Virus record (IMG/VR): IMGVR_UViG_2541047438_000018
Span: 1 to 10,593 of that record
From: a virus
Lineage: Duplodnaviria > Heunggongvirae > Uroviricota > Caudoviricetes
Length of the DNA stretch: 10,593 nucleotides
Reading direction: 5' to 3' (one strand)
The position numbers were made by a program. Numbering within the stretch: position 1 is the stretch's first letter; each line of letters opens with the position of its first letter. Of this stretch, positions 9,001 to 10,593 are shown one piece after another.

Positions 9001-10593
9001 TTTCAACCCGCACCTGATGATTCAGGCGGTTAATCTCCTCGCTGCGTTTTCGTCCTTCAGCAAGTTGCCATTCCCGCCACTCCTCCACCGTCCGGTACGG
9101 TGGAACCGCCCCCTGTGGTGCAAGTCTGCGAATACGTTCAAGAACCCCAACTGCCGCAATGTTTTTCATGACACGTCACCCCCTGAATCCCGGCGGTATT
9201 TCAGTGTCCGGTTCAGAAATGTGATTCACGCAACGCTGCGCGGGCGAACGCCCCAGGCGGATAACCAGTTCATCCCATTTTTCCCGGAGTTTTGCCGGAC
9301 TCATGATGTTTTTTACCCAGAACGAATCCCGCTGGAGACGCCCAAACATTTCACAAATTTGTCTGTGAGTTCTGCCATCCAGCATCCGCATTGTCCGCAC
9401 GTCATTGGCCCATGCAGTCCAGTTGGGTTCTTTCGGTCTCGTGATCTCGCCATCATCGCTGGCCGCCTGCTCGTAAAGACTCACGATTCGTCCCCAGATC
9501 CACTGTGCGCACACCAAATCTTCCTGACTTCCCCACTGGCGTTTTTTCGCACTGAACACAACCGCGTCAGGGTGTCGGGTTAAAAAATTCTGTTCAGCCG
9601 TCTGCGGGTCCGGTTGCGAAGCGTCCGGACAAGAAGATCTTTTATCTGACGGATCAGGTTTTAATACTGACGGATCGGGGTCAATCATCGCCCCCCTAAT
9701 CGGCAGTTTGTTATCAACAGTTGATCCATCAAAATTTGACGGGTCAACCGTTGAGGGGGCAATATTTGACGGGTCAACTGTTAACGGGTCATTTTTTGCC
9801 GGGCTAATTTTTCTTTTCGGTTTATATGACTCACGCGCCGCCGCAGCAGCTGCTTCGAGTTTTTCCACATTAAGCCGATAGATATTGCTTACATTACGCC
9901 CACCGACCTTACGCTCTTCCTTCGTCAGCCAGCCCTCTTTCGCCAGTTCTGCAATAGCCGATTTCACTGTGGATTCACTTCTTGCACCGATCTGACGCCG
10001 GATAGTTTCAATGGCAGGCCATGACACGCCCTCGTCATTGCTGTAGTCTGCAAGACGGGCCATAACCGCCACCCTGGATAAGATCATGCCGGTGAAGGCG
10101 CACCCTTCCCAGACAAGACCATGAAGCTTGCTGCTCATAAAACCCCCGAACACCGTGCTTTTAGTGCATCACCACAGCATTCCCTGCCGGGCCGCCGCGA
10201 TTCATCTGGTCATACAAAACAACCGCTGACGCAACAAAATCATCGACATCCTTCACCAGCCGATCCCTCCGTTCGACGATCTCACGGTAATATTCAGAAC
10301 TGTGGCTGCGCATACGGGCCACCAGCAAAGGCGGCATCGCCTTTTCGATCGCCGGTAACAGAGCCTGCATTTTTTCAACAGCATCAGGGGTGTCTTTATC
10401 CAGCCAACGGAAAATTTTCTGGGTATTACGGGCCAGGGCTTCCGGATGGCTGTCGTCATACAGTTCCGGGAACGTCATTCCCAGCTCGAAATACGCTTTG
10501 GTAATTTTCGCAGCCGGTACTTTTTCGCCGTCCGGATGCGCCCAGACATTCATCGCCATGCGGATGTGTTCATGCTTGATTTTCATGAATCAA

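Follow-up and report, generated by a model that had tools for sequence, protein, structure and literature searches.

Here we describe a cluster of short repeats at 9646-9803 in a 10,593-bp stretch of viral DNA (Caudoviricetes; IMG/VR record IMGVR_UViG_2541047438_000018, positions 1 to 10,593; the whole stretch is hereafter called the window), lying inside the minus-strand gene for the replication initiator of an Escherichia coli O157:H7 lambdoid prophage of the CP-933P type. We consider it probable, at roughly three chances in four, that this cluster is the cis-acting replication origin of the prophage module, an origin of the iteron type situated within the segment of its own initiator gene that encodes the linker. 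We favor this reading because the cluster is non-random and unique, its layout is found throughout the family, its DNA is under selection and its repeats co-vary with the DNA-binding domain; and also because a mosaic joint falls at the repeat end, copy number changes by whole units, the protein context is winged-helix, lambda-O-like and DnaC-type, and there is no nearby alternative site. That an origin can lie within the initiator gene has been in the textbooks since the 1980s, from lambda, and the lambda-plan architecture leaves this concept unchanged. What would be new, on computational grounds, is an origin for this particular initiator family, set apart by the fold family of its N-terminal domain, its 15-bp phasing, its invariant twin boxes and its DnaC-type loader.

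The gene and the elements of the cluster are as follows.

9176..10138, minus strand: replication initiator gene, "O-like", 320 amino acids (open reading frame (ORF) and translation; PHROG 391; identity to O157:H7).
9714..9803, minus strand: array of six 15-bp-phased units (Tandem Repeats Finder and repeat search, autocorrelation, unit consensus).
9721-9732, minus strand: dyad box TTGATCCATCAA, part of the 15-bp array.
9736-9747 and 9766-9777, minus strand: dyad box TTGACGGGTCAA, part of the 15-bp array.
9751-9762, minus strand: dyad box TTGAGGGGGCAA, part of the 15-bp array.
9781-9792, minus strand: dyad box TTAACGGGTCAT, part of the 15-bp array.
9680..9713, minus strand: 34-bp spacer from the array to the twin boxes (comparison with L016-L021).
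9646..9679, minus strand: twin terminal boxes CTGACGGATC (on the gene strand GATCCGTCAG), 21 bp apart, with a GATC in each (repeat search).

The motif TGACGGRTCA, allowing at most one mismatch, occurs seven times in the window, where 1.10 matches would be expected by chance and none of 200 shuffled sequences reached seven; six of the seven lie within the 145 bp of 9647-9791. An earlier note on this DNA, made by reading the sequence, had counted four direct copies of it. Three of them are exact (9647, 9737 and 9767), and the fourth, at 9668, reads TGACGGATCG and departs from the motif by one mismatch, a final G for A. The partial copy at 9782 (TAACGGGTCA) and the inverted, minus-strand copy at 9722 (TGATGGATCA) are present as that note described, as is the clustering. 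The repeats themselves are real, then, but the motif does not capture their true unit, which is a 15-bp-phased dyad accompanied by two separate terminal boxes. The array at 9714-9803, with a period of 15/30 bp according to both Tandem Repeats Finder and the repeat search, is the only one in the window with more than two copies; its units carry dyads resembling TTGA-N4-TCAA, and the autocorrelation of the gene peaks at lags of 15, 30 and 45. On the other side of the spacer, which is a degenerate copy of an inverted repeat found in the closest relatives (GGGGTCAA-TGG-TTGACCCC), the sequence CTGACGGATCRGG is present twice. All of this lies in the middle of the gene (nucleotides 336-493), and translation of the ORF gives the Asp/Pro/Ser-rich linker NDPLTVDPSNIAPSTVDPSNFDGSTVD...IDPDPSVLKPDPSD that had been quoted earlier, in which the repeat units encode pentapeptides of the form D-x-S-x-x.

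The layout was compared in 86 complete homologues, of which one is the window gene itself, 7 come from phages and 78 from a set of 80 genome loci. The phage homologues were collected by tblastn with the N-terminal domain (SfIV, Flotzy, YeP1, phiP27, 716R3, Kp4866-6 and KpnBHU6; 51-72% identity), and the genome loci represent one genome per species, in genera that include Erwinia, Edwardsiella, Yersinia, Providencia, Proteus, Rahnella and Pantoea. The N-terminal domains of the 86 homologues share 51-77% protein identity with that of the window. The earlier note had held that repeats lacking or displaced in homologous initiator genes would speak against an origin. What was found is the same succession, from DNA-binding domain through 15-bp array, spacer and twin GATCCGTCAG-type boxes to the C-terminal domain, in 8/8 of the phage homologues shown and in 80/80 genome loci, in which the linker translation was inspected; the C-terminal domain that follows the boxes belongs to one of several unrelated types.

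Periodicity and box counts in the 86 genes agree with this. In the linker, autocorrelation averages 0.48 at lag 15, 0.46 at lag 30 and 0.42 at lag 45, against a background of about 0.24 and a value of 0.28 at lag 15 in the N-terminal domain, and TGA-N4-TCA reaches 17.8 per kb in the linker vs 0.4 per kb in the rest of the gene. The terminal box pair was recovered in 84 of the 86, with the first box being exactly GATCCGTCAG in 61. The number of anchored 15-bp unit pairs ranges from 1 to 10 per gene and shifts by whole 15-bp units, one relative (L004) having one fewer and two others (L020 and L021) differing by three. In window-like genes the unit consensus is TCAAATATTGACCCC.

Whole-unit steps of this kind are also what replication slippage would give, and a protein-only explanation has to be considered, in which the cluster is a low-complexity Asp/Pro/Ser linker born of slippage and encoding its D-x-S-x-x pentapeptides, the DNA repeats being a by-product. 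The pattern of nucleotide conservation makes it improbable. At the codons of the box GAT CCG TCA GTA, third-position entropy is 0.0, 0.4, 0.0 and 0.0 bit, while its mean is 1.6 bit over the 26 N-terminal-domain residues whose conservation is 90% or higher; over the whole twin box, per-position entropy stays at 0-0.4 bit, third codon positions included. Mean identity to the window is 0.96 for the 12-nucleotide box, and 0.62 for the DNA of the N-terminal domain, where it falls to 0.35 at synonymous third positions. Synonymous positions are, in other words, frozen across genera next to a domain that is saturated at such sites. Serine codons are likewise strongly skewed to TCA and TCT, which make up 51% and 33% of those in the linkers of the family vs 17% and 11% in the remainder of those genes; the window gene itself uses TCA for 7 of its 8 linker serines vs 1 of 20 elsewhere (Fisher p=5e-5). 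Furthermore, the amino acid at the unit center changes freely among Pro, Ala, Thr and Gly, with the flanking TGA and TCA being kept. The repeat DNA is more conserved than its coding role would require, and at the level of sequence comparison this amounts to purifying selection on the DNA. An overlapping gene was considered as the source of the synonymous conservation and rejected, any alternative frame being open across the linker in at most 22 of the 86 genes.

The repeats also follow the DNA-binding domain with which they are found. The repeat search, which recovers the four annotated iterons of lambda as a positive control, finds a different set of repeats at the same mid-gene position in each of four other initiators. 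Besides lambda O, these are Rac YdaU, with four mid-gene copies of AAGCAGATGTTCAA, mostly 33 bp apart; the L005 type, with 23-bp mid-gene units CATCAGGCCATTTTGACCCGATG and an unrelated N-terminal domain; and the O gene of Min27 (L013), a distant HTH_36 initiator with 37-39% identity, in which three GGTGGGGCAGGAGCTGCCC units at gene nucleotides ~292-360 encode GGAGAA. Min27 is a further repeat type in the same superfamily, at the same position after the domain. The earlier note had proposed a comparison with lambda and Rac, and both do carry repeats of their own at that position.

In the L005 type, the 3′ ~470 nucleotides are ~91% identical to the window gene. By blastn, window positions 9171-9643 are 91% identical to a locus with the alternative N-terminal type (L005/L006), a nucleotide search with the gene returned matches (H40-H46) confined to query positions 3-468/470, and the homology ends precisely at the edge of the repeats.

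9643..9645, no strand: mosaic joint, where homology to the alternative N-terminal type ends.

Because homology stops at the repeat edge, the DNA-binding domain and the repeats are inherited as one unit, to which interchangeable C-terminal domains are attached; at least three C-terminal domain types are joined at the twin-box junction. If the N-terminal domain recognizes the repeats as its sites, co-inheritance of this kind is what one would expect. Within the family, recognition-helix residues and half-sites show little variation, and this variation is confounded by phylogeny.

The protein encoded by the gene, and that of the gene directly after it, can be divided as follows.

9824..10138, minus strand: N-terminal winged-helix DNA-binding domain, amino acids 1-105 (Pfam HTH_36; AlphaFold2 model; fold search).
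9239..9592, minus strand: C-terminal domain, homologous to the lambda O C-terminal domain (BLASTP against lambda O).
9179..9238, minus strand: C-terminal tail ...SEPDTEIPPGFRG, common to E. coli DnaT (PDB matches 2ru8, 6aep and 9zbt).
8429..9169, minus strand: DnaC-type helicase loader gene, directly downstream of the initiator gene (DnaC identity; Pfam IstB_IS21; PHROG 50).

As a whole, the protein matches PHROG 391, "replication initiation O-like", at E=6.9e-115 (residues 1-320 against profile positions 1-298 of 298). The label of O-like initiator that it had been given holds for its C-terminal half, since residues 153-300 align with the C-terminal half of lambda O at 34% identity over 148 amino acids (E=3e-25). 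It does not hold for the N-terminal domain, which matches Pfam HTH_36 (27.8 bits, cut-off 25); no match to any NCBIfam model was obtained for the initiator, TIGR01610 included, a model that lambda O matches at E=5e-39. DnaD_N, the N-terminal domain of the DnaD/SPP1 G38P-type replisome organisers whose origin lies in their own gene, gives a weak match (E=0.005; 17.4 bits, cut-off 27), and no Rep_3-type domain was detected in the initiator with Pfam. The AlphaFold2 model of the N-terminal domain (predicted local distance difference test, pLDDT, 85.5) has the topology H-H-H-H-beta-beta-H of a winged helix, and the best solved structures in the fold search, among the best 50 of 1,300 matches, are winged-helix regulators of the ArsR/MarR/PadR type. 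These families bind palindromic DNA as dimers. No plasmid Rep initiator was found among the same best 50 of 1,300, the fold being that of a generic winged helix.

The last 20 residues of the initiator are identical to the tail of K-12 DnaT at 14 of 20 positions (70%). Rac YdaU likewise ends in a DnaT-like tail, as do 28 of the 86 family members, with various C-terminal domains. A link between this tail and a downstream phage DnaC-like gene was looked for and rejected for want of correlation: a loader lies in the flank at only 5 loci, and the complete genes at these loci all lack the tail. In the window, the downstream gene does encode a loader of the DnaC type, as had been noticed before, and not a lambda P: it is 49% identical to E. 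coli DnaC over 242 amino acids and along its full length (E=2e-87), matches Pfam IstB_IS21 and PHROG 50 ("DnaC-like helicase loader"), and scores 500 bits against NCBIfam PRK12377 (cut-off 389) and 309 bits, under the cut-off of 357, against the DnaC equivalog.

Two AT-rich tracts border the repeats, one on each side.

9804..9833, no strand: AT-rich tract flagged earlier, 73% AT over 30 bp (nearest-neighbor stability scan).
9629..9670, no strand: AT-richest 40 bp of the gene, candidate unwinding region (AT scan; alignment of homologues and lambda O).

The first, described in the earlier note as AT-rich and alongside the repeats, is modest, and in most homologues the corresponding segment is not the richest in AT, the conserved tract of the family lying at the opposite, twin-box end. 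There, the best 40-bp window (9631-9670) is 68% AT in a gene with a mean of 48%, and in SfIV, Flotzy, 716R3, KpnBHU6 and phiP27 the AT-richest 40-bp window lies at the matching point of the gene. The proposed opening is placed at this end because the AT-richest 40 bp lie there in most family members, in alignment with the AT-rich segment of lambda. Of all same-size windows across the 10.6 kb, ~7-15% are less stable than the tracts by the repeats.

From these elements, and by analogy with lambda, a succession of events can be proposed. Dimers of the N-terminal winged-helix domain would bind the TGA-N4-TCA dyads (five to six, every 15 bp) and the two GATCCGTCAG boxes; the resulting nucleoprotein complex would destabilize the adjoining, moderately A/T-rich DNA at ~9629-9680; and the lambda-O-like C-terminal domain, together with the tail, would recruit the DnaC-type loader with host DnaB. 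It is from this analogy that we infer initiator binding, unwinding and origin firing.

A different cis-acting function for the cluster, be it an autoregulatory operator, a control site that responds to Dam/SeqA or a "linker" for recombination between replication modules, seems unlikely to us, though several observations would suit it. The twin boxes sit exactly at the joint of at least three C-terminal domain types, and GATCC, which contains a Dam site, starts every first box and most second boxes across the family. With four sites in 110 bp around 9636-9726, two of them inside the twin boxes, the density of GATC is the highest in the window. Moreover, several relatives have a Dam-like methylase gene after the initiator, directly in YeP1 and 716R3, and also in SfII/SfV (PMC3851460). 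Against it, lambda-type origins are defined by just this combination of dyad repeats placed mid-gene in an initiator and changing along with the type of its DNA-binding domain (PMC7466680), and repeat scans revealed no other candidate origin in the module. The intergenic gaps flanking the initiator gene measure only 6 and 22 bp, so that there is no room for another origin close to the replication genes. As for recombination alone, it would need conversion tracts of ~50 bp spread across many genera.

The same GATC boxes could be accommodated in a bipartite origin, in which the variable 15-bp array would be the initiator-binding platform or "O-some" and the near-invariant GATC boxes (GATCCGTCAG and the A-rich spacer) a distinct site for unwinding or helicase loading, possibly gated by Dam/SeqA. 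The boxes are common to all combinations of C-terminal domain and loader, and we hold this arrangement as a tentative option, with perhaps a minor share of the probability. If true, and taken together with the DnaT-type tail, it would provide a natural system for studying how a single module for origin recognition combines with different routes of helicase loading, and would bear on the question of whether such a phage module gave rise to the cellular dnaT-dnaC pair.

Binding of the repeats by a regulator other than the initiator, such as YdaT, or by a host factor (DnaA, IHF or an FNR-like protein), is very improbable. It is true that the TTGA-N4-TCAA dyads superficially resemble other TTGA...TCAA operators and that one-mismatch matches to the DnaA box occur at 9711-9719 (TTATCAACA) and 9861-9869 (TTTTCCACA), inside and beside the repeat region. 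The spacing of FNR half-sites, however, differs from that of the repeats; the seven DnaA-box matches in the window (2.8 expected) are scattered rather than clustered at the repeats, a count that 6 of 200 shuffles reach; and the repeat region contains no match to the IHF consensus. The YdaT operator of CP-933P, experimentally defined as TTGATT-N6-AATCAA (PMC9986795), has no match in the repeats even at three mismatches and is found in perfect form only at 10576-10593. Searches for promoters, terminators and Rfam RNA families likewise gave no match in the repeat region.

Among known systems, the closest in plan is ori-lambda, and the origin-in-O architecture that had been invoked for the window is supported by the relative position of the repeats, the C-terminal homology and the conservation of the DNA. 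In both cases the repeats are dyad-symmetric and lie mid-gene (nucleotides 349-435 of O, vs 336-493 here), in the linker between the DNA-binding domain and the loader-recruiting domain, and the loader gene comes directly after. The lambda origin consists of four iterons and an AT-rich tract within gene O, and that of Shiga toxin (Stx) phages has six iterons; iteron number varies between relatives of the lambda type, and in lambda the two iterons nearest the AT tract suffice in vitro (PMC7466680). The differences are nonetheless clear. The N-terminal domain is TIGR01610/Phage_rep_O in lambda and HTH_36 here; 18-19-bp iterons spaced 20-24 bp are replaced by 10-12-bp dyads phased every 15 bp; the two separate, near-invariant terminal boxes are peculiar to the window family; the AT tract is richer in lambda; and the loader is P there and DnaC-type here.

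Rac (ydaS-ydaT-ydaU-ydaV) shares with the window the order of YdaT, initiator and DnaC-like protein, and its YdaU has the same IPPGFRG tail end and mid-gene repeats of its own. Yet these repeats are different, and the DUF1376 N-terminal part of YdaU is unrelated to the window protein. An active origin, oriJ, has been reported in Rac (PMC3945230); its exact position was not found in the literature searched. True homologues are instead provided by the Shigella phages of the SfII/SfIV/SfV type, L17 of phiP27, Yersinia YeP1 and Klebsiella prophages (PHROG 391), with N-terminal domains at 51-72% identity, the 15-bp array and the twin GATCCGTCAG boxes; they differ in unit consensus (TCAAAATCTGACGCA, vs TCAAATATTGACCCC in the window type), in box spacing (24 vs 21 bp), and in having other C-terminal domains and partner genes. 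No origin was described for these initiators in the papers searched. Iteron plasmids resemble the proposed origin in that a winged-helix initiator is presumed to bind direct repeats beside an unwinding region, but their iterons lie outside the rep gene, whereas here they are intragenic and accompany a protein in which no Rep_3-type domain was detected. Finally, the dnaT-dnaC operon of E. coli has the same order of the gene pair, with the DnaC homologue downstream and the 20-residue DnaT tail upstream. Outside the tail, no similarity between DnaT and the initiator can be detected, and the role of DnaT is in the restart of replication and not at an origin.

Several points weigh against an iteron-type origin. 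A spacing of 15 bp corresponds to a non-integral number of helical turns, unlike the spacing in lambda, and the AT tract is weak, with 68% over 40 bp vs 80% in lambda. Conservation at the module junction could stem partly from recombination between modules rather than from selection on an origin. The prophage type has been called cryptic (PMC9986795), one paper states that nothing is known about the replication proteins of the non-lambda "Eru" modules of Stx phages (PMC8951638), and neither an experiment on this initiator family nor a description of its origin was found in the searchable literature.

Every gene in this region is on the minus strand: the initiator gene (9176-10138) is accompanied by a YdaT-family gene at 10161-10586 and by the ATPase gene of the loader (8429-9169, 246 amino acids). 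The perfect YdaT operator at 10576-10593 assigns the module to the CP-933P type. The ORFs of both initiator and loader are open. In O157:H7 chromosomes the initiator gene is matched at 100% identity over 978 bp, under the annotation of a helix-turn-helix protein, and 2,232 of 5,426 complete E. coli genomes (~40%) have related copies. Relatives of this widespread type are carried by serotype-converting phages of Shigella, by phiP27 (deposited as bacteriophage P27) and by prophages across many genera of enterobacteria. An origin located in this gene would offer a concrete target for asking whether cryptic O157 prophages still replicate, with effects on the dosage of cargo genes after induction, as well as a marker for the typing of replication modules. 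The repeat region would be, in addition, a compact example of DNA selected both as coding sequence and as an array of binding sites.

A few further observations concern the family and the rest of the window. One circular record of 15,977 bp (L097, NZ_CP148542.1), entered as a "plasmid" of an E. coli from a dog, contains nothing beyond the cI-cro-ydaT-initiator-DnaC-like...Q-lysis segment of the same prophage type; its initiator lies at 1675-2637, and a typed plasmid replicon is absent. A lambda-dv-like mini-replicon, escape replication or an assembly artefact could each account for it. It was discarded as evidence of a natural mini-replicon because its initiator carries a 1-nucleotide deletion, possibly a sequencing error, in a C-run just before the twin boxes. 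Many database proteins of the initiator family (P0001-P0056) are recorded as "partial" at contig ends, and assemblies apparently often break in or near this gene.

Elsewhere in the window, two 31-nucleotide direct repeats lie 33 bp apart at 6132-6195, in the region of a DUF551 gene (TGGTTGACGTTTCCGAGATTTCCCGAAAATT and a copy 74% identical to it). An AT-rich island (1965-5464) separates the early genes from the Q antiterminator gene; it holds most of the least stable DNA of the window and encodes a HATPase_c_3 protein of 463 amino acids, a Methyltransf_35 protein of 330 amino acids and, on the opposite strand, a C-5 cytosine DNA methylase of 383 amino acids; it looks like an inserted modification or defense cassette.

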